Source of the DNA: Candidatus Dormiibacterota bacterium
GTDB taxonomy: Bacteria > Chloroflexota > Dormibacteria > Aeolococcales > Aeolococcaceae
Reading direction: 5' to 3'
NCBI GenBank assembly: GCA_036828955.1
Contig: DAISRJ010000001.1
Location: forward strand, 69,778 to 133,777
Length of the DNA stretch: 64,000 nt
Every line of letters begins with the position of its first letter. Within the stretch, counting starts at the first letter, position 1. A program made the translations under genes and the position numbers. Positions 32,937 through 46,667 of this stretch are shown one piece after another. A model generated the notes under the pieces. That model was not told where the DNA came from. It worked only from the letters and a program-made list of their open reading frames with translations, and searched no databases.

Positions 32937-33770
32937 GTGGAGCCGGGAATCATCGCGGCAATCGTCGGGGGCAGCTGCGCACTGGTCGCCGTGCTCCTCA
33001 GCGGTCTCCGCGTCGTCAGGGAGTACCAGCGAGGCGTGATCTTGCGCCTGGGACGGCACGGCCCGACGCTTGACCCCGGGCTCCGCTACATCCTCCCGCT
33101 CGGCATCGACCGACTCACCCGGGTCGACCTGCGCAGTGCGCCTCTCGACGTCCCCGCTCACGAGGTGATCACCCACGACGGGGTGCCCGTGGTGGTCGGT
33201 GCCACGGTGACCCTCCAGGTGCTCAACCCCCTCCTCGCCCTCACCCGCGTGGTCGACTACCGTCAGGCCACCGTGCAGCTCGTCCAGGCCGCGCTGCGTG
33301 ACGTCGTCGCCGCCACCGCACTGCGCGAGCTGCTCCTCGACCAGGAGGCGATGCGCGAGGCCCTGGCTCAGTTTGTCGATGCCCGCGCGGAGCCGTGGGG
33401 GATCCGGGTGACGTCGGTAGACCTCACGGACGTCGTGCTCCCCGACGCCATGCAGCGCGCCATGGCCCGTCAGGCCGAGCTGCGCGGCGGCCAGGCGACC
33501 GCGCGCGCCCCCTCTGAGCCCAACGCCGACGCGCGGCAGCTGGAGGCTGTGGCCAAGATCCTCGCCACGCAGCCCCGCGATGTTCAGGCACGCTTTCTGC
33601 AGGCGCTCAGCGACGCGCGCAGCGGCGGTTCCACGGTGGTGGTGGTGCCCCTTCCGGTGGACCTGGTACAGCCCTTCGTCGATCTCCAGGGGCACGCCTT
33701 TCCCGCCCTGCTGTCGCCCGAGGGTGAAGCGCCCGGCGGCGACTCACCGGCGCCGGGCCAGGGCCAGTAG
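32937..33770 (+). CDS. SPFH/band-7 (stomatin/prohibitin-like) protein
   Basis: N-terminal TM followed by VREYQRGVILRLGR...VPAHEVITHDGVPV, typical of stomatin-like SPFH domains. Confidence 0.85.
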   Translation: MEPGIIAAIVGGSCALVAVLLSGLRVVREYQRGVILRLGRHGPTLDPGLRYILPLGIDRLTRVDLRSAPLDVPAHEVITHDGVPVVVGATVTLQVLNPLLALTRVVDYRQATVQLVQAALRDVVAATALRELLLDQEAMREALAQFVDARAEPWGIRVTSVDLTDVVLPDAMQRAMARQAELRGGQATARAPSEPNADARQLEAVAKILATQPRDVQARFLQALSDARSGGSTVVVVPLPVDLVQPFVDLQGHAFPALLSPEGEAPGGDSPAPGQGQ

Positions 33771-38301: not shown

Positions 38302-39047
38302 CTCAGGTCCGCACGAAAGCACTGGGTGAGGTACGGAAGCCCGAATCGCTCGGCCCCGGCCAGGTCGGCGTGGGTGTCCGTGAGGCGGCGCACGTCGGCC
38401 AGGACCGCATCGCGTTCCTCTCTGGGGAGCGTGATCACGTAACTCCTCGACGCAACCAGGTCGACCAGCGATGCCCGGGTCAGCCAGTGCGTCCACGCCA
38501 CCTCGCGATGCTCGATCGGCCCAAACGGAGGGCCAACCGCGGGCTTGGGGCCGTCCGAGTCCCGCTCCCCGTGCGCGTGCATGAGCCGGCCGAGGTCAAG
38601 CACCCAGCTCTCGCGCTCGTCACGGATGTTCCAGAGGAGGCCAAGCCTGCCCGCCGGGGCGAGGACGCGCGCCACCTCGGGAACGGCCAGCGTCGGGTTG
38701 ACCCAGTGCCACGCCTGCGCGACGAGGACGGCGTCGACGCCGCCATCGTCGAGGGGTATCGCCTCGGCGGTACCGGCGAGGAGGGTGACCTGGGGGAACG
38801 CCGCGGCGAGCCGGTCGCGCATCCCGCTCAGCGGCTCGACGGCGACGACGTCAAGGCCGCGCCGCTGGAGCAGCCCGGTCAGCTTCCCTGTGCCGGCCCC
38901 GAGGTCGAGGACGCGGCGCGCCGCGGACGGAAGCAGCCAGTCGACGGCCTCGTCGGGGTACTGCGGGCGACCCCGCTCGTAGGCGGCGGCAGCGACGCCG
39001 AACGACGCCGCGGCGCTGATCGGCGGCTCATCGACGGTGCCGGTCAC
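38298..39047 (-). CDS. Class I SAM-dependent methyltransferase
   Basis: Motif I VLDLGAGTGKLT. GTG start GTGA-overlapping the CGNR gene stop. Confidence 0.85.
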   Translation of the reverse strand: MTGTVDEPPISAAASFGVAAAAYERGRPQYPDEAVDWLLPSAARRVLDLGAGTGKLTGLLQRRGLDVVAVEPLSGMRDRLAAAFPQVTLLAGTAEAIPLDDGGVDAVLVAQAWHWVNPTLAVPEVARVLAPAGRLGLLWNIRDERESWVLDLGRLMHAHGERDSDGPKPAVGPPFGPIEHREVAWTHWLTRASLVDLVASRSYVITLPREERDAVLADVRRLTDTHADLAGAERFGLPYLTQCFRADLR

Positions 39048-39721: not shown

Positions 39722-39768
39722 CTTGACAGGTGACGTGGTGTGGGGGTATAGTATCACCACTGACAAGG
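39722..39768 (+). promoter_or_regulatory. Near-consensus promoter (TTGACA-18 nt-TATAGT) bracketed by an imperfect inverted repeat
   Basis: TTGACA at 39723..39728 and TATAGT at 39747..39752. Arms CTTGACAGGTGACG (39722..39735) and ATCACCACTGACAAGG (39753..39768). Confidence 0.6.
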
Positions 39769-39796: not shown

Positions 39797-39952
39797 ATGA
39801 TGAACACACAGTTGTATGAGCTGGCTCAGGTTCGCGAGCAGGAACACATGATCGCAGCCACCACCCGCCGGGGTGGCTACCGCCGCGGCAACCGCATGAT
39901 CGTGGGTGTCGCGCGCCGCCTGCGCCGGCGCGGCCAGTCCGAGCAGAGCTGA
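39797..39952 (+). CDS. Unannotated 51-aa basic protein (below the track cutoff)
   Basis: AAGGAG 7 nt upstream of ATGATG. Product MMNTQLYELAQVREQEHMIAATTRRGGYRRGNRMIVGVARRLRRRGQSEQS. 43 of 51 codons end in G/C by my count. About 45 nt downstream of the promoter above. Confidence 0.5.
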   Translation: MMNTQLYELAQVREQEHMIAATTRRGGYRRGNRMIVGVARRLRRRGQSEQS

Positions 39953-40175
39953 ATCGCCGGGGCCGTTGACGAGCCGGGATCGGCGGAGCTGACACTCCAC
40001 CGTTTCCTGCTCGGCCGGCCCCGCGACAGCGGCGGGCGTGCCGGCACGGCACGGCCGGCGTGGTAGCCTGCGTGACGGCGGTGAGGCGTCGAAACGCGTT
40101 GTGGTGGAAAGCCCCTCGGCTTCGACTCCCATTCGCTTCCCCGGCGACTTTGAACGTGATGGCAAGGAGGAACCC

Positions 40176-41204
40176 ATGAGCGTGTTCCGGCGCTTCAGCA
40201 ACATTTTCCAGGAGAAGAGCAACGCCGCCCTCGATCGCATGGAGGACCCGTCCCAGGCAATCGACCTCTCTTACCAGCAGCTCCTCGAGCAGCAGCAGAA
40301 GCTCCGCACCGCGCTGGTCGAGGCCACCACCGGGCAGAAGCGGCTGGAGAACCAGGCCGCGGACATGGACAAGCGTATCGCCCAACTCAACACCTCGGCG
40401 CAGCAGGCGATGCAGGCCGGCAAGGAGGATCTCGCCACCCAGGCGCTCACCCAGGCAGAGGTGCTCGGCCAGCAGCGGCAGGCAATTGATCCCCAGATCC
40501 AGTCGATCAGGGCCCAGGTGGCCAAGCTGCAGCAGGCGATCCAGAAGTACCAGGCCAAGGTGACCGCTTTCGCCAACCAGCGCGAGTCGATGAAGGCGTC
40601 CTACGAGGCGTCGAAGGCGACCAGCAGCGCCGGGGACACGCTCGCCGGCATCGGGGAGCACACCTCCGACGCGGCGATGATGATGCAGCGCGCCCAGGAC
40701 AAGATCGCACGCACCCAGGCCCACGCTGACGCGGTGGACTCGCTGCTCGACAGCGGCGTCCTCGACGCGCCCCTGCTCGGCGGCGCCTCCACCCTCGACG
40801 ACCAGATCACCGCCACCGTGGTCGACAGCAACGTGCAGGCGAAGCTGGCGGCGATGAAGTCACAGCTCGGCCTGTCAGCGCCTGCACATGCGCCGCAGCT
40901 CGAGGCGTCCGGCATCGTGGTTCGCATCCACGGCGACGACCAGTACCGCCTGGACGCGTCCGCCCGGCCTGAGCTCGACGGCTTCGACCACCGCCTCATC
41001 GCAGCGGTGCGGGCCGACGACGACGCGGCGTACCACGCGGCACTGGGCGACGTCACCGCGTTCGTGAAGTCGAAGGGCATGGCCCTGCCGCACGGCGACC
41101 TCACGGCCAGCACCATCATCCTGCCCAGCGACGACATGTCCCTCGACGAGGTCACCTCGATGCTGCAGCAGGAGAACTGGATGGGCGAGCCGGCCGCGAC
41201 GTAG
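40176..41204 (+). CDS. pspA: PspA/IM30 family protein with a C-terminal PspAA-like extension
   Basis: AGGAGG RBS. MSVFRRFSNIFQEKSNAALDRMEDPSQAIDLSYQQL parallels the E. coli PspA N-terminus. Long coiled-coil region. The last 97 aa (40911..41201) begin GIVVRIHGDDQYRLD. Confidence 0.88.
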   Translation: MSVFRRFSNIFQEKSNAALDRMEDPSQAIDLSYQQLLEQQQKLRTALVEATTGQKRLENQAADMDKRIAQLNTSAQQAMQAGKEDLATQALTQAEVLGQQRQAIDPQIQSIRAQVAKLQQAIQKYQAKVTAFANQRESMKASYEASKATSSAGDTLAGIGEHTSDAAMMMQRAQDKIARTQAHADAVDSLLDSGVLDAPLLGGASTLDDQITATVVDSNVQAKLAAMKSQLGLSAPAHAPQLEASGIVVRIHGDDQYRLDASARPELDGFDHRLIAAVRADDDAAYHAALGDVTAFVKSKGMALPHGDLTASTIILPSDDMSLDEVTSMLQQENWMGEPAAT

Positions 41205-41216
41205 GCGCTGCCGGGC

Positions 41217-42071
41217 TCAATCCGCCTGCGGTGGCGTAGAAGCTCCCCCGGCGGCGCCGCCATGAGCACCGGGCGCATCGTTCAGCGGCAGCACCATCTT
41301 CGGGTTGATGCGGCGATGACCGTCGCCCGCCATGCGGACCGTGGTCCCGATGGCGAGGAACTCGATGACGTGGCTGCCCCAGAGGTGGGACTGCTGCTCG
41401 ATGCGCATGGCCACGACGCCGAGCGCGCCGGTGCCACGAACCTCCTCCTGCATGCGCGTCATGGCCAGCTCTCGCGCCTCGTAGAGAGCCGCCGTGTAGT
41501 TGCTCAGCTCGACGTTCTGTGTCGCCTGACCGACCCAGGTGCTCAGGCCCTGGTGAGCGATGTGGTACACGCACGCGCCGAACGCGAGGTCGACGGGTGT
41601 GTAGCCGGCGCGCACGAGCAGGTAGAGGTCCTGGCCGGAGAGGTCGCTGAGCCAGGGCCGTCCGGGGCGTTCCGAGGTGGTCGCCACGGCCGTGCCCAAC
41701 GCCACGAACTCCGCGAGGTGCTCGCTGCCGCGGTCGATGCGCACCTCGAGCTTGAGCCCGATGACGCCGTGGGCGCCGATCTTGGCGGCGTGCGTCTGCA
41801 TCCGCCGGATGGCGTCGGCGCGGGCGGCGTACATGACCTGGGTGAGGCCGGTCATCTCCTCGTTGTTGCTCCAGTTCTGGTACTGGATGCCGATGTGGTA
41901 GACGCCGCAGCCGATGACGAGACCGCGGGGCTCGTAGCCGACCTCTTTCAGCAACACCGCCTCGTCGACGGAGAGGTCGCTGCTGAAGCGACGGCCCTGG
42001 TGGCGCTCTCCCTGGCCGGTGGCGAGGCAGCGCAGTGCCGCGTCGGCGCGCGGATGCGGCATCACAGCCAT
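41217..42071 (-). CDS. Tandem double YbjQ/UPF0145-domain protein (paralogue C)
   Basis: Two modules: FSSDLSVDEA...HGVIGLKLEV...AEFVALGTAV and WLSDLSGQDL...LGVVAMRIEQ...IEFLAIGTTV. Pattern matches E. coli YbjQ (GADAVVGI...SGTAV). The ATG overlaps the upstream stop (TGATG). Confidence 0.8.
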   Translation of the reverse strand: MAVMPHPRADAALRCLATGQGERHQGRRFSSDLSVDEAVLLKEVGYEPRGLVIGCGVYHIGIQYQNWSNNEEMTGLTQVMYAARADAIRRMQTHAAKIGAHGVIGLKLEVRIDRGSEHLAEFVALGTAVATTSERPGRPWLSDLSGQDLYLLVRAGYTPVDLAFGACVYHIAHQGLSTWVGQATQNVELSNYTAALYEARELAMTRMQEEVRGTGALGVVAMRIEQQSHLWGSHVIEFLAIGTTVRMAGDGHRRINPKMVLPLNDAPGAHGGAAGGASTPPQAD

Positions 42072-43045
42072 CAGGACAGCCTCATGATCGGCAGCGGCAC
42101 CTCATCGAGCGCGTCCTTCGCATAGCGGCGCACGGCGGTGCCGACGCAGACCAGCTCGCTGAGCAGGGCGCCGGTGCCCACGGCATGGTTGACGAAGTCG
42201 ATGTCCACGCCCACCGCGCCGTCGGCGTCCACAGCTTCGATCTCCTCCTCGAGGCGTTGAATGCCGAGCAGGCGGGCGGCCTCGATGCCGTCGCTGACCT
42301 GGTCGATGCGAACGTTGTTCCAGGAGCGGAGCAACCACTCTGTGCCGCAGCCGGGGTCGATCTCCACCGCCCCGATGCCGACGACGAGGGCGACGGGCAC
42401 ATAGCCGCCGTGGAGCAGCTTGCTGAACGCAACGCCGTCGAGGTGCGACATGAACGGACGCGCCAGGGCAGGGCCGCCGGTGCGACGGATGGCGGTGCCG
42501 ATGACGGTGAATTCCAGCGAGCTCCCGACGCCCTCGAGGTGCCGTCGAATCAGCCTCACCCCGACGACACCGTGGGCGCCGAGGTCGCGTGCCTCCTCGA
42601 TGATGCGCGCCAGCGCAGCGTCGCGCGCAGCCACGAGGCCATCCTCGTAGGTGGTGTGCTCCCAGTTGAAGCCCCAGCGGTGGTCGGTGCCCATGCCGTA
42701 CCCGTGCGGGCACGGGTATCTCTGCAGGAATCCGACGCGCGCGGGGACGGCTCCTCCTCCGAAGGCCCCCTGGCCGACCGTCATGAAACCCGCATTGCCG
42801 AAGACGTTGTTGTACCCCCACTGCGCGGCGATGCGGTAGACGCTCGAGCCCATCACCATGCCGACCGCCTCAAAACCGGCGTGGCGGATCGCGGAGAGCT
42901 CGGCCACCGACAGGTCGCTCGTCCACGCCGCACCCGGCTGGCGCATCTCCTCGATGCGATCGCGGGCGGCAAGCGGTAGATCGCCTCGTTCGAGGGCGGC
43001 GATGCTCTCCAGCTGGCGTTGCTCGGCGGTGGCGTCGTCAGGCAT
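42071..43045 (-). CDS. Tandem double YbjQ/UPF0145-domain protein (paralogue B, with an insertion in domain 1)
   Basis: WTSDLSVAEL...HGVVGVRLIR...LEFTVIGTAI, plus a more divergent second module ending SELVCVGTAV. ATG at 43045 (the track uses TTG at 43048). TGATG overlap with the upstream stop. Confidence 0.75.
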   Translation of the reverse strand: MPDDATAEQRQLESIAALERGDLPLAARDRIEEMRQPGAAWTSDLSVAELSAIRHAGFEAVGMVMGSSVYRIAAQWGYNNVFGNAGFMTVGQGAFGGGAVPARVGFLQRYPCPHGYGMGTDHRWGFNWEHTTYEDGLVAARDAALARIIEEARDLGAHGVVGVRLIRRHLEGVGSSLEFTVIGTAIRRTGGPALARPFMSHLDGVAFSKLLHGGYVPVALVVGIGAVEIDPGCGTEWLLRSWNNVRIDQVSDGIEAARLLGIQRLEEEIEAVDADGAVGVDIDFVNHAVGTGALLSELVCVGTAVRRYAKDALDEVPLPIMRLS

Positions 43046-43908
43046 CAACGGTCCAGCGAGAGGACCATCTGCGGCTTCTCGATCTCGCGGTCGCCCAGCT
43101 TGCGCACGGCGGTGCCCATGGAGAAGAACTCGATCGTGTGGCTCCCCCAGACGTGCGACTTCTCCTGGATCTGCACGCCGACGATGCCCTCCGCCTTGAG
43201 CTTGCGGGCCTCATCCTGCATGCGTTCCATGGCCAGCTCGCGGGCCTCGTAGAGGGCCTGGGTGAAGTTGGCCATCTCCTTGTTCTGGCCGATGTTGCCG
43301 AGGGCCTGGAACATCCTCTGGTGGGCGACGTGGTACACACACGTGCCCATCACCAGTCCGAGCGGCGCGTGGCCGGATTGGATGAGCGTCCAGAAGTCCT
43401 GGCCGCTCAGGTCGGAGGTGAACGGCTTGCCCTCATTGGTCTTCCAGTTGCTGCCATCCTCGGCAGAGACAGCGGTGCCGAGAGCGATGAACTCGGCGGT
43501 GCCGCGACCCCACTCGTAGAAGCCGACGTCGAGCCGCACACCGACCACGCCGTCGGCGCCGAGGACGGTCGCCTCCTCCTCCATGCGCGCCATGGCCAGT
43601 TCGCGGGCGGCGTACATCGCCTGGGTGAGTGTCTTCACCTCCTGGCTGGAGCTCCAGCTCTTGGTGGTCAGGCCGATGTGGTAGATGCTGCTCCCCACAA
43701 CCAGGCCGCGCGGGTGGAACCCTGCCTCCTTGACGAGCAGGAACTCGTTCACCGACAGGTCGGACGTGAACAGGCCGTCCTTGCCCTGCAACTCGCTGAG
43801 GCGACGCAGCGCGTCCTTGGGGAGGCCTTCGAGGTCCGGCTGCAACGCGGCCGCGGGCTGCTCTGGAGCCGGCGGTGGCGGGGGTGGCGGCGGCGTCTGC
43901 TGGGTCAT
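43045..43908 (-). CDS. Tandem double YbjQ/UPF0145-domain protein (paralogue A) with an N-terminal poly-proline
   Basis: ATG at 43908 with GGAGG RBS. MTQQTPPPPPPPPAPE. Modules FTSDLSVNEF...ADGVVGVRLDV...AEFIALGTAV and FTSDLSGQDF...EGIVGVQIQE...IEFFSMGTAV. Confidence 0.8.
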   Translation of the reverse strand: MTQQTPPPPPPPPAPEQPAAALQPDLEGLPKDALRRLSELQGKDGLFTSDLSVNEFLLVKEAGFHPRGLVVGSSIYHIGLTTKSWSSSQEVKTLTQAMYAARELAMARMEEEATVLGADGVVGVRLDVGFYEWGRGTAEFIALGTAVSAEDGSNWKTNEGKPFTSDLSGQDFWTLIQSGHAPLGLVMGTCVYHVAHQRMFQALGNIGQNKEMANFTQALYEARELAMERMQDEARKLKAEGIVGVQIQEKSHVWGSHTIEFFSMGTAVRKLGDREIEKPQMVLSLDR

Positions 43909-43943
43909 GGGTGGGCAGCCTCCAAAGTCTGCGGTGAGCTCTC

Positions 43944-44336
43944 TCAGGTGACCAGGGAGCGCAGTGCGGCACTCGCCTGGGCGCTGCTCTGCGCTTGGCC
44001 GGCGAGGACGCCGACAAGGGCACGCAGCCATTGGTCGAGGCCGGTCTCCTCGGAGCGCAGGGTGATGCCTCGCACGGCATGAGCGTGGCGGCACATGACC
44101 GCGCCGTGGCGCCACTCGGCCTCGAAGATGTCGTCACCGGCGTGGACGACGATGCGCCTGATCGGGTGGTCCTTCTTGAACAGGCCACCCTCACGCTCCA
44201 ACTCGACGGCGCCCGGCATCGTGTCGACGAGCTTGCCACCCAGCACCTGGAAGAAGACGCCGATGTCGCTGGCGTCGGCGCGGAGAGAGGCGGTGAGCGC
44301 GTCGAGGTCGGGCTCCGACGATGGAACGTCGCTCAT
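43944..44336 (-). CDS. Hypothetical 130-aa protein, paralogue 1 (CRHAHAV motif)
   Basis: Start chosen at MSDVPSS by homology to the neighbouring paralogue. Shares MSDxP...DLDxLxASLxADA...VFFxVL...CRHxHAVxGI...WLRALV...AALRSLVT. Confidence 0.6.
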   Translation of the reverse strand: MSDVPSSEPDLDALTASLRADASDIGVFFQVLGGKLVDTMPGAVELEREGGLFKKDHPIRRIVVHAGDDIFEAEWRHGAVMCRHAHAVRGITLRSEETGLDQWLRALVGVLAGQAQSSAQASAALRSLVT

Positions 44337-44377
44337 CAGCGGTGCGAGTATAGGAGGTGGCCAAACACGGGCACGGC

Positions 44378-44779
44378 CTACGTGACCAGCGAGCGGAGAG
44401 CCGCCGCAGCGGCCGCCGTGGCCTCGACGTCCTGGGCGACGATCGCCACCAGGGCGCGGAGCCATTCGTCGACGCTCACCTCCTTGGACCAGGGAAGTCC
44501 GCCGCCGATGCCGTGCACGGCGTGGATGTGACGGCAGGTGACGCCGCCCGGCCCCTGCTCCGCGGCGAATGTCTCGTCGCCGAGGCGCACGGTCACCTTG
44601 CGGGGCATGCGATGGCTCTTGAGCAGCGCGTGATCACGCTCCACGACCGTGGCCGACGGGAAGGCGGCGAGGAGCTTTTCGCACAGGACACGGAAGAACA
44701 CCGTGGCGTCGCGGGCGTCCGCGTTGAGCGACGCAGCGAGCGTGTCGAGGTCGGTCCCCGGTGCAGGCATGTCGCTCAT
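44378..44779 (-). CDS. Hypothetical 133-aa protein, paralogue 2 (CRHIHAV motif)
   Basis: AGGAGG RBS overlapping the upstream TAG. Collinear similarity to 43944..44336, with an identical C-terminal AALRSLVT. Confidence 0.65.
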   Translation of the reverse strand: MSDMPAPGTDLDTLAASLNADARDATVFFRVLCEKLLAAFPSATVVERDHALLKSHRMPRKVTVRLGDETFAAEQGPGGVTCRHIHAVHGIGGGLPWSKEVSVDEWLRALVAIVAQDVEATAAAAAALRSLVT

Positions 44780-44799
44780 GTCGATGACCGGCCTGCCTC

Positions 44800-45273
44800 C
44801 TAGAGGCGGTACAACCGCTCGCCGCGCCGCATCACCACCTTGGCGCCGAGGCGCCGGGCGTGGCCGCGGATGCGGCGCCCGTCGATGACTGTGCTGCCTG
44901 CCGCGGTGTTGATGTGGGCGGCGATGGCCGCCGACGTGGCGGGCCCAAGCTGCTCCATGGCCGCGCCGACGATCTCATCGGTGACCGGACCGGTCGGTGA
45001 CGCCGACTCGGCGCTCTTGGCGCTGGGCTTCCGAGCCTTCGATGCCTTGCGGGCCGGCTTGGATCGCGGTGATCCGTCCTTCTGAGCGTTGGACGCCTCG
45101 AGGGACGACGCGACAGAGTTGATGAGCTTGGTCAGCTCGCTGACGACGTTGTTGAGGTTGTCGGCCACGACCCGCAGCGTTGCGGGCAGACCCTTGGGGC
45201 TGTTCACGCTGTCCACGGTAGCAGTCAACGAGAGCCGATAGCCGCGCGGCTCGGTAACCGCAAGCACCGTCAT
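44800..45273 (-). CDS. Hypothetical 157-aa protein with a Lys/Ser/Ala-rich linker and a possible wHTH C-terminus
   Basis: First gene of the minus-strand cluster. Linker SPRSKPARKASKARKPSAKSAES. C-terminal AAIAAHINTAAGSTVIDGRRIRGHARRLGAKVVMRRGERLYRL. Confidence 0.6.
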   Translation of the reverse strand: MTVLAVTEPRGYRLSLTATVDSVNSPKGLPATLRVVADNLNNVVSELTKLINSVASSLEASNAQKDGSPRSKPARKASKARKPSAKSAESASPTGPVTDEIVGAAMEQLGPATSAAIAAHINTAAGSTVIDGRRIRGHARRLGAKVVMRRGERLYRL

Positions 45274-45338
45274 CCGCTTTGGTCGCAGACCGGGAACGAC
45301 GCGGTTCAGCGGTGACGCCGGCCCCTATAACCCAAAGC

Positions 45339-46667
45339 ATGTCCCTGCTCCCGACGGACCCAGGTGCGCGCCGGGTACTACTCGCGGGCTGTGCCGGACT
45401 GCTGCTGACACTTCCTGTCCTGGCTCACGACAGCCTCAGTGGCCACCTCGAGCTTGGTTGGATGGCGGTTGCCGCCGGGGTGGCGTTATCCATCGTCGCC
45501 CTGAATCGGCGCAGCCTGCCCGGCCTCCGAACCACCCTGGTCGCGACGGCGATCTGCGTCGCGTTCGCCGTATGCAGCGTCGTGCTGCTCGCCCATACGC
45601 TGGCGTCACCACCGGGCGGCGACCTGCGCTGCCGTGACGACGTCGCCGTCGTCACCTTCGGAGGCGCCGACCAGCTGCGCAGTGGACACAATCCCTACAC
45701 GTCGTACGACGCCCTGCGCACCGCGCAAGCCTACGGCTGTGCCCACATCGCCGCCACTGCGCTGCGCCGTGGGCAGTTCGCCTCCGCGACCGCCGCGCCC
45801 TCCGGCCCTGCGGTGGCCGCAGCCGTGCAAGCCGCACTGCATGACCCGTCCCGGCCCGAAATCGAGCGAAACCTGAACTACCCGAGCGGGAGCTTCCTGC
45901 TCGGCCTGGTCGGTCCGGCCGCGTTTCCCTGGGTGATGGCGCTGCTGTTGGTGGGCGCGCTTGCCCTGACCGTTCGCCGAGCCACCACCGACCGCCGTGC
46001 CGTCGCCCTCGCCCTGGCCGCGCAGGTGGCGCTGCTGGCGCTCATCCCCGACGGGCACACGGATGCTGCTGTGGTGGCCATGCTGCTCATCGCCTGCGCC
46101 AGCCCGACGACCCTGCTGGGTGGCCTCGCGCTCGGCCTCGCCTGCGGCACCAAGCAAACCGCCTGGTTCCTGGTCCCCGCGTTGCTGGCCACCGCCTACG
46201 CGCGCGGCGGTCGTCGCGGTCTGCTGCGTGCCGGCGGCGGTGTCGCCATCGGCTTCGGCACACTCAACCTGCCCTTCGTGTTCATGGGCGCGAGCGCGTA
46301 CATCCACGGCGTCATGGGACCGCTGGTCGACGGGCTCTTCCCCTTGGGCGTCGGTCCGATCGGGCTGGTCACCTCCGGCGTGCTGCCCATCCAGGCGGCG
46401 CCGCTGTTCACCGCGCTGATGCTGTGCTGCGTCGTGGCCTCCGTGCCGGTGGCGCTGCGATGGGACCGCACCCACCCCGGCATCGGCGTGCTGCTCGGCT
46501 CCCTCGCCCTCTTCGTCGGCCCGCGCAGTCTGCTGGAGTACATCGCCGGCGCGGGCGTGCTGGTGGTCTGCGCAACCGCCACGGCGCCACGAGGCGTCGG
46601 GGCGCGGCAGCGTGCGCCAAAGAAGGTGGCCGGGCAGGATTTGAGCCTGCGACCCTTGGAGTCGTGA
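45339..46667 (+). CDS. Polytopic membrane protein, possibly a GT-C/DUF2029-type glycosyltransferase
   Basis: ATG at 45339. More than 10 hydrophobic segments. The family assignment is only an impression. The last ~13 codons run into a tRNA-like fragment. Confidence 0.55.
   Translation: MSLLPTDPGARRVLLAGCAGLLLTLPVLAHDSLSGHLELGWMAVAAGVALSIVALNRRSLPGLRTTLVATAICVAFAVCSVVLLAHTLASPPGGDLRCRDDVAVVTFGGADQLRSGHNPYTSYDALRTAQAYGCAHIAATALRRGQFASATAAPSGPAVAAAVQAALHDPSRPEIERNLNYPSGSFLLGLVGPAAFPWVMALLLVGALALTVRRATTDRRAVALALAAQVALLALIPDGHTDAAVVAMLLIACASPTTLLGGLALGLACGTKQTAWFLVPALLATAYARGGRRGLLRAGGGVAIGFGTLNLPFVFMGASAYIHGVMGPLVDGLFPLGVGPIGLVTSGVLPIQAAPLFTALMLCCVVASVPVALRWDRTHPGIGVLLGSLALFVGPRSLLEYIAGAGVLVVCATATAPRGVGARQRAPKKVAGQDLSLRPLES

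Follow-up and report, generated by a model that had tools for sequence, protein, structure and literature searches.

The 64,000-nucleotide stretch of Candidatus Dormiibacterota DNA analysed here (contig DAISRJ010000001.1, positions 69,778 to 133,777; hereafter the window) carries between positions 41217 and 45273 six consecutive genes, G1 to G6, three of which encode tandem YbjQ-domain proteins, and these genes lie beside a gene for a PspA-PspAA fusion protein. The six open reading frames (ORFs) were confirmed, all on the minus strand and all with ATG starts, and their coordinates match exactly the layout given in a preliminary description of this DNA, with intergenic gaps from G1 to G6 of 20, 41, 35, -1 and -1 nt, both -1 values being TGATG stop/start overlaps. 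Since the G+C content at third codon positions (GC3) is 0.87-0.92 in each of the six genes, in a genome of about 70% G+C, these are real coding frames. The preliminary description had taken the host for a member of the Actinomycetota, and this had to be corrected, the source names of the homologues being Candidatus Dormibacterota; the module itself is common to Actinomycetota too. The features of the locus are the following.

44800-45273, minus strand: G1, 157 aa as called, a lineage-specific ORF outside the conserved core
44378-44779, minus strand: G2, 133 aa, second copy of the small-protein family, local duplicate of G3
44347-44352, minus strand: -10-like hexamer TATACT, putative promoter of the G3-G6 core transcript
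43944-44336, minus strand: G3, 130 aa, conserved small subunit of a family outside Pfam
43045-43908, minus strand: G4, 287 aa, A-type tandem YbjQ protein, the most conserved subunit
42071-43045, minus strand: G5, 324 aa, B-type tandem YbjQ protein, its start overlapping the G4 stop by 1 nt
41217-42071, minus strand: G6, 284 aa, C-type tandem YbjQ protein, its start overlapping the G5 stop by 1 nt
40173-41204, plus strand: PspA_IM30 + PspAA fusion gene, 343 aa, convergent with G6, candidate functional partner

The identical six-gene set was called on independent metagenome contigs (L001-L006). No Rfam family was found between positions 39000 and 46500. The scan for intrinsic terminators yielded none on the minus (operon) strand; its single weak terminator-like site lies on the plus strand at 44155-44168, antisense within G3, a yield close to that from shuffled sequence.

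The YbjQ/UPF0145 family (PF01906, formerly DUF74), of which E. coli carries a member, shares its domain with G4, G5 and G6. In the Pfam search PF01906 (YbjQ_1) was matched twice in each of the three products, with E-values of 1.5e-24 for G4, 8e-15 for G5 and 5e-19 for G6, and scores of 87, 55.7 and 69.2 bits, respectively, against a gathering cut-off of 23. DNA repeats inside each gene, spaced 348-363 nt apart, mirror these domain repeats. Searches of NCBIfam returned sub-threshold matches only, to single-domain YbjQ equivalogs, and in PHROGs the YbjQ-like family phrog_15412, whose function is unassigned there, was matched. The AlphaFold2 (AF2) model of G4, built from a 27-sequence alignment, reached a pLDDT of 89.5 and a pTM of 0.84, shows two helix/three-strand units and superposes on the solved YbjQ subunits 1vr4, 1y2i and 3qkb with a Foldseek probability of 1.0. 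These results uphold the earlier reading of the last three genes as double-YbjQ paralogues with six YbjQ-fold domains, the fold being modelled for G4. The sequence signature that had been proposed for all six domains survived in part: the glycine-rich GxxGVVGV and the GTAV are kept, but the SDLS deviates in the second domain of G5. The first domain of G5 also has an insert of about 38 aa. G6 is the paralogue nearest A, being 50% identical to G4.

The architecture sets these proteins apart from the YbjQ members studied so far, which are single-domain proteins of about 105 aa and, in the solved cases, ring-forming homopentamers (PMC2954204, PMC4092069), whereas G4, G5 and G6 hold tandem domains in 284-324 aa and represent three paralogue lines, A, B and C, in a fixed gene order with an unrelated small protein. 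In the literature searched we found no functional study of YbjQ/UPF0145/DUF74/PF01906, the papers found giving structures and fold comparisons. The G4 model also matches RcsF, an envelope-stress sensor, with a Foldseek probability of about 0.99 (2y1b, 6t1w). The fold relationship between YbjQ, RcsF and DUF1471 (YhcN) has already been published (PMC4092069). RcsF and the DUF1471 proteins are periplasmic or outer-membrane lipoproteins and monomers, unlike G4-G6, which are tandem, cytoplasmic and by inspection have neither a signal peptide nor a lipobox; the resemblance of the G4 model to RcsF lies at the level of the fold only, and is suggestive without being evidence of homologous function.

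With G4 as the query, 374 clusters at E < 1e-30, mostly of 250-330 aa, were found among 1.84 billion representative proteins, so that the tandem YbjQ proteins make up a sizeable family. When one genome per GTDB species was scanned, at least 559 loci were seen to encode a G4 relative, and the best 80 of these were examined by running hidden Markov models (HMMs) of the small-protein family and of the tandem YbjQ proteins on all their ORFs, each tandem-YbjQ gene being assigned to whichever of G4, G5 and G6 it matched best. These 80 loci belong to Dormibacterota, to many Acidimicrobiales and to cultured Actinomycetes, the carriers among the latter including Streptomyces montanisoli, Catenulispora pinistramenti, Streptacidiphilus melanogenes, Trebonia, Pseudonocardiaceae and Acidothermaceae. 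The small protein adjoins tandem-YbjQ genes in about 74 of the 80. The order A(G4)-B(G5)-C(G6) occurs in 59 loci, from Dormibacterota and Acidimicrobiales, and C is absent from the two-gene variants, which read small-B-A in some Dormibacterota and in Acidothermaceae, and B-A-small in Streptomyces, Streptacidiphilus and Pseudonocardiaceae. The conserved unit, chromosomal at this locus, is one small protein with two or three tandem-YbjQ genes. The six-gene operon of the preliminary description was right in its genes and layout and wrong as a conserved unit of six; the core is syntenic in many genomes, with pspA present in a subset.

By gene content, G1 and G2 are lineage-specific additions to this core. 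A second small copy, corresponding to G2, was found only in Dormibacteria resembling the window (L001-L006, L013), and G1 has homologues in only 19 protein clusters, all of Dormibacteria, and is missing from L011, L016, L018 and other distant loci.

The genes that flank the module vary by lineage and include F420/nitroreductase-like, SnoaL-like, AIM24, GH65 and deacetylase genes; besides PspA, no recurrent neighbour was found in the examined loci, only lineage-specific genes. An AIM24-family gene (PF01987, E = 9e-40; L076, 10573-11364) recurs near the module in Acidimicrobiia, lying directly downstream of C on the same strand in four loci (L076, L081, L086, L088) and upstream of the module in many Acidimicrobiaceae loci. 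AIM24 is poorly understood in bacteria.

The subunits of the module are under very unequal constraint. When the window was compared with the actinomycetotal loci, identity across phyla was 63-75% for A, 44-53% for C, 30-49% for B and 30-47% for the small protein, with PspA at 39-43% in the same loci. Across 84 A-type orthologues 99 of the 287 positions are at least 97% conserved, compared with only 15 in B and 29 in C, which makes A the constrained core, at a level of conservation across phyla that is unusual for a hypothetical protein; B, judged by these alignments, evolves fast. The conserved positions of A include an (F)TSDLS motif that recurs where either domain begins and, in the second (C-terminal) domain, a set of Cys190, His193, His252 and His257, which likewise stands at 97% or more in the 84 orthologues. 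This set offers four potential ligands to a reading in which the module would be a metal-binding or metal-homeostasis system with A coordinating the metal, and both Pfam and RefSeq label such genes as encoding a 'heavy metal-binding domain-containing protein'. We consider it an unlikely reading: the Pfam label is itself 'putative', the YbjQ papers retrieved report no tested function, and the surroundings of the module show no recurrent metal transporter, MerR/ArsR regulator or chaperone. Moreover B, C and the N-terminal domains lack the Cys/His cluster, and no Cys or His is conserved in the small family.

Two copies of these genes reside on plasmids. The first is a B-A-small set on the 287-kb linear plasmid NZ_CP108424 of Streptomyces sp. 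NBC_01294 (L093, 5112-7213), labelled by RefSeq as two 'heavy metal-binding domain-containing' proteins and a hypothetical protein; the second is a distant (42%) tandem-YbjQ sequence, apparently partly annotated, on the conjugative plasmid AP018309 of the cyanobacterium Aulosira laxa (L094, 6001-6708). These copies indicate that the family is not limited to Actinomycetota and Dormibacterota and that plasmids can carry it. Together with the existence of a YbjQ-like phage family (phrog_15412) they are what speaks for a role in anti-phage defence or as some other mobile accessory system, an explanation that we regard as very improbable, since no PADLOC-DB v2 model matches G2-G6, a tblastn search of the phage collection gave no match, and the proteins contain no effector domain such as a nuclease or an ATPase, and since the exceptional conservation of A and the stable gene order over two phyla are unlike those of typical defence islands.

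The core appears to have a promoter of its own. In the window the hexamer TATACT stops 10 nt short of the G3 ATG, and across the species-level loci a TAnnnT ending 6-13 nt before the start of the small gene was present in 52 of 79, compared with 0.7% at random positions in the same loci. The hexamer is missing where a same-strand PspA gene lies upstream of the small gene (L049, L051, L075 and L078) and where the small gene comes last (L080, L082 and L090). The conservation of this -10 element, together with the pattern of its absence, fits a leaderless or very short-leader transcript that starts at the small gene. In the window G3-G6 would then be transcribed from the -10 box before G3 as a leaderless or near-leaderless mRNA, and the 1-nt stop/start overlaps would couple the translation of A, B and C. 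The ancestral operon was probably G3-G6, with G1 and G2 added upstream in this lineage; G2 is preceded by a GGAGG Shine-Dalgarno sequence and by no -10 box.

Beside this core stands the PspA gene. Its product matches PspA_IM30 (E = 1.5e-26) and PspAA (E = 6e-21) in Pfam, and its stop codon lies 12 nt from that of G6. The preliminary description had taken this adjacency as a hint of a membrane or envelope-stress role, and the hint gained weight from the other genomes, in which PspA, its identity confirmed with Pfam, was an immediate neighbour of the module in three arrangements, among Dormibacterota and Acidimicrobiales/Actinomycetota. In the first, a convergent PspA-PspAA gene lies downstream of C, as in this window and in L011/L012, L013 and L016 (in L014, after an insertion, the distance is about 5 kb). 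In the second, a divergent PspA-PspAA gene lies upstream of the small gene, with about 60 nt of shared intergenic DNA (L008, L018, L019). In the third, a PspA gene without PspAA lies on the same strand directly upstream of the small gene (L049, L050, L051, L075, L078), and a co-directional string PspA-small-A-B-C is seen. As a genome has few pspA genes, the chance of finding one within 8 kb is by our own estimate about 1% per genome, so three rearranged yet immediate adjacencies in two phyla speak well for a functional link without proving it.

The reading that we favour, and to which we would give an even chance, is that the products of the module form a soluble YbjQ hetero-oligomer acting together with PspA, the core operon being expressed from its own -10 box. 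The solved YbjQ proteins are ring homopentamers and the paralogues here are co-translated, which suggests that A, B, C and the small protein would form a soluble hetero-oligomer on the ring-forming YbjQ fold. Within it A would be the functionally constrained subunit, whose Cys/His3 cluster may bind a metal or ligand; B and C would be diverged structural or regulatory paralogues, and the small protein would be an obligate accessory subunit. Judged by the gene neighbourhood, the complex would act with the ESCRT-III-like membrane-repair protein PspA(-PspAA), as its cytoplasmic partner, regulator or client in membrane stress. A more specific proposal, which we put forward only tentatively and think less probable, is that the module is an unrecognised cytoplasmic partner of PspA, serving as a ring-shaped scaffold, a sensor or a regulator of PspA polymerisation.

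Known partners of PspA provide a comparison. The survey of phage-shock-protein (PSP) neighbourhoods by Ravi et al. 2024, the most extensive of its kind, described the PspA-PspAA fusion in Actinobacteria and Chloroflexi and catalogued PspBC, LiaIGF, PspM/N, PspAA, PspAB, Band-7/flotillin, Toastrack and others as partners (PMC11237479). As with those partners, the evidence for the module is a recurrent gene neighbourhood in several arrangements, and the adjacent gene is a PspA-PspAA fusion; unlike them, the module has no membrane-anchoring component, and its association with PspA is found in a minority of the genomes that carry it.

Several observations weigh against a partnership with PspA. Only 10 of the 80 species-level loci have PspA within 8 kb, a count to which an iterated PspA HMM added none, and most Acidimicrobiaceae and all sampled Streptomyces-type loci have no PspA nearby; the adjacency expected from the preliminary description is recurrent but not universal, and the link may be facultative or lineage-restricted. 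Moreover the loci are phylogenetically non-independent and represent only some three or four independent arrangement events, and the convergent arrangement in this window, taken alone, implies no co-regulation. As a PspA partner YbjQ/UPF0145 is absent from the text of the PSP survey (PMC11237479) and from the supplement searched. As for the complex itself, the Cys/His3 cluster is conserved in the A-type proteins alone, and the fixed-stoichiometry hetero-oligomer, already put forward in the preliminary description, remains inferred from paralogy, gene order and overlapping codons only.

Much of this would suit an autonomous cytoplasmic complex with a housekeeping or stress role, in which the pspA adjacency is incidental, the product of inherited synteny and a few chance rearrangements. 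The 70 species-level loci without PspA in their fetched flanks, the lineage-specific metabolic genes that make up the remaining neighbours and the silence on YbjQ in the survey's text and the supplement searched all agree with it. We hold it to be possible but doubtful, since PspA stands directly beside the module in three orientations in two phyla, since in the same-strand PspA-small-A-B-C string the small gene is not preceded by the usual -10 box, and since a pspA gene so close would be expected so rarely by chance.

The YbjQ domain family, and the public annotation of such genes as YbjQ or heavy-metal-binding, are already known. In the literature searched we found no described system of this composition, in agreement with the preliminary description. 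Four features appear to be undescribed there: the division of the tandem proteins into three paralogues, the obligate partnership with a new small protein, the way in which conservation is distributed across phyla, and the recurrent PspA adjacency. YbjQ/UPF0145 is a widespread domain with solved structures and no assigned function, for which the locus gives a first testable functional context, and the PspA adjacency offers a membrane-stress hypothesis that can be tested in cultured carriers (Streptomyces, Streptacidiphilus, Catenulispora). Were a partnership with PspA true, it would be the first functional assignment, in the membrane-stress response, for YbjQ/UPF0145, with the small family as its adaptor, and it would provide the PspA/ESCRT-III field with a soluble partner, of which kind that field lists none.

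Two further observations were made near the PspA gene. On the plus strand at 39723-39752 lies a near-consensus sigma-70-type promoter (TTGACA-18-TATAGT, 11/12 matches), followed at 39797-39952 by an arginine-rich ORF of 51 aa that was called upstream of pspA in all related contigs and could encode a short leader or partner peptide for the PspA-PspAA gene. About 6.4 kb from pspA, at approximately 32937-33770 on the plus strand (converted from L001, 19276-20109), is a Band_7/SPFH gene, separated from it by unrelated genes; SPFH proteins are known neighbours of PspA in other bacteria.

The small proteins G2 and G3, which are 49% identical (E = 3e-35), belong to a family with 87 homologous clusters for G3, and matched no family in Pfam, NCBIfam, PADLOC or PHROGs, as expected of the pair without a nameable family that had been noted before. 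The CRHxHAV sequence is no signature of the family, being kept in close relatives only, and was rejected as a metal motif on the same ground. Across 34 diverse members the invariant positions are D24, W103, L107 and L125. The AF2 model of G3 (pLDDT 82) shows two helices, a five-stranded meander and two helices; Foldseek found nothing below E = 0.02 for it in PDB and BFVD, and no consistent fold, and profile searches with the family against PDB gave nothing significant. By these searches the small protein is taken to form an undescribed family.

Two assignments of the small protein were tried and rejected, and a third was not supported. As PspAA (PF22743) it reached an hhalign probability of 0.1%, with no Pfam match, and as a YbjQ-like domain it showed no relation in hhalign. 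DUF5073 (PF16817) was matched at sub-threshold level only, by two distant family members (E = 1.3e-5 and 3e-4; best score 25.6 bits against a gathering value of 27), with 1 of the 34 diverse members at E < 0.01 and no match for G2 or G3 in the Pfam scan.

On two short contigs (L009, 1743-2129; L010, 676-1062) a family member 45% identical to G3 occurs without a tandem-YbjQ gene, flanked by Peptidase_A4-like and IMPDH/GMP-reductase-like genes, so that members of the small family do occur apart from the module.

As most homologues of G1 begin about 25 residues further in, its start is uncertain and the true one may lie about 25 codons downstream. The protein as called has an N-terminal helix, a basic linker rich in Lys, Ala, Pro and Ser, and, at its C-terminus, a conserved domain of about 60 aa; the last 60 residues are nearly invariant among the few homologues and have by eye the look of a helix-turn-helix with a wing. 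Searches with G1 gave no significant match in Pfam, PADLOC or PDB, only weak PDC-S70 matches in PADLOC (E = 0.006 and 0.03) and, as the sole PDB similarity, a non-significant one (E = 1.5) to the CAP-like domain of topoisomerase III. From its architecture G1 may be a lineage-specific DNA-binding regulator.

Divergent from G1, on the plus strand at 45279-46667, with gene callers placing the start near 45462, lies a gene for about 400-460 aa that is not kept beside the module in other lineages and has no Pfam family on record; its product is strongly hydrophobic and, by inspection, polytopic.

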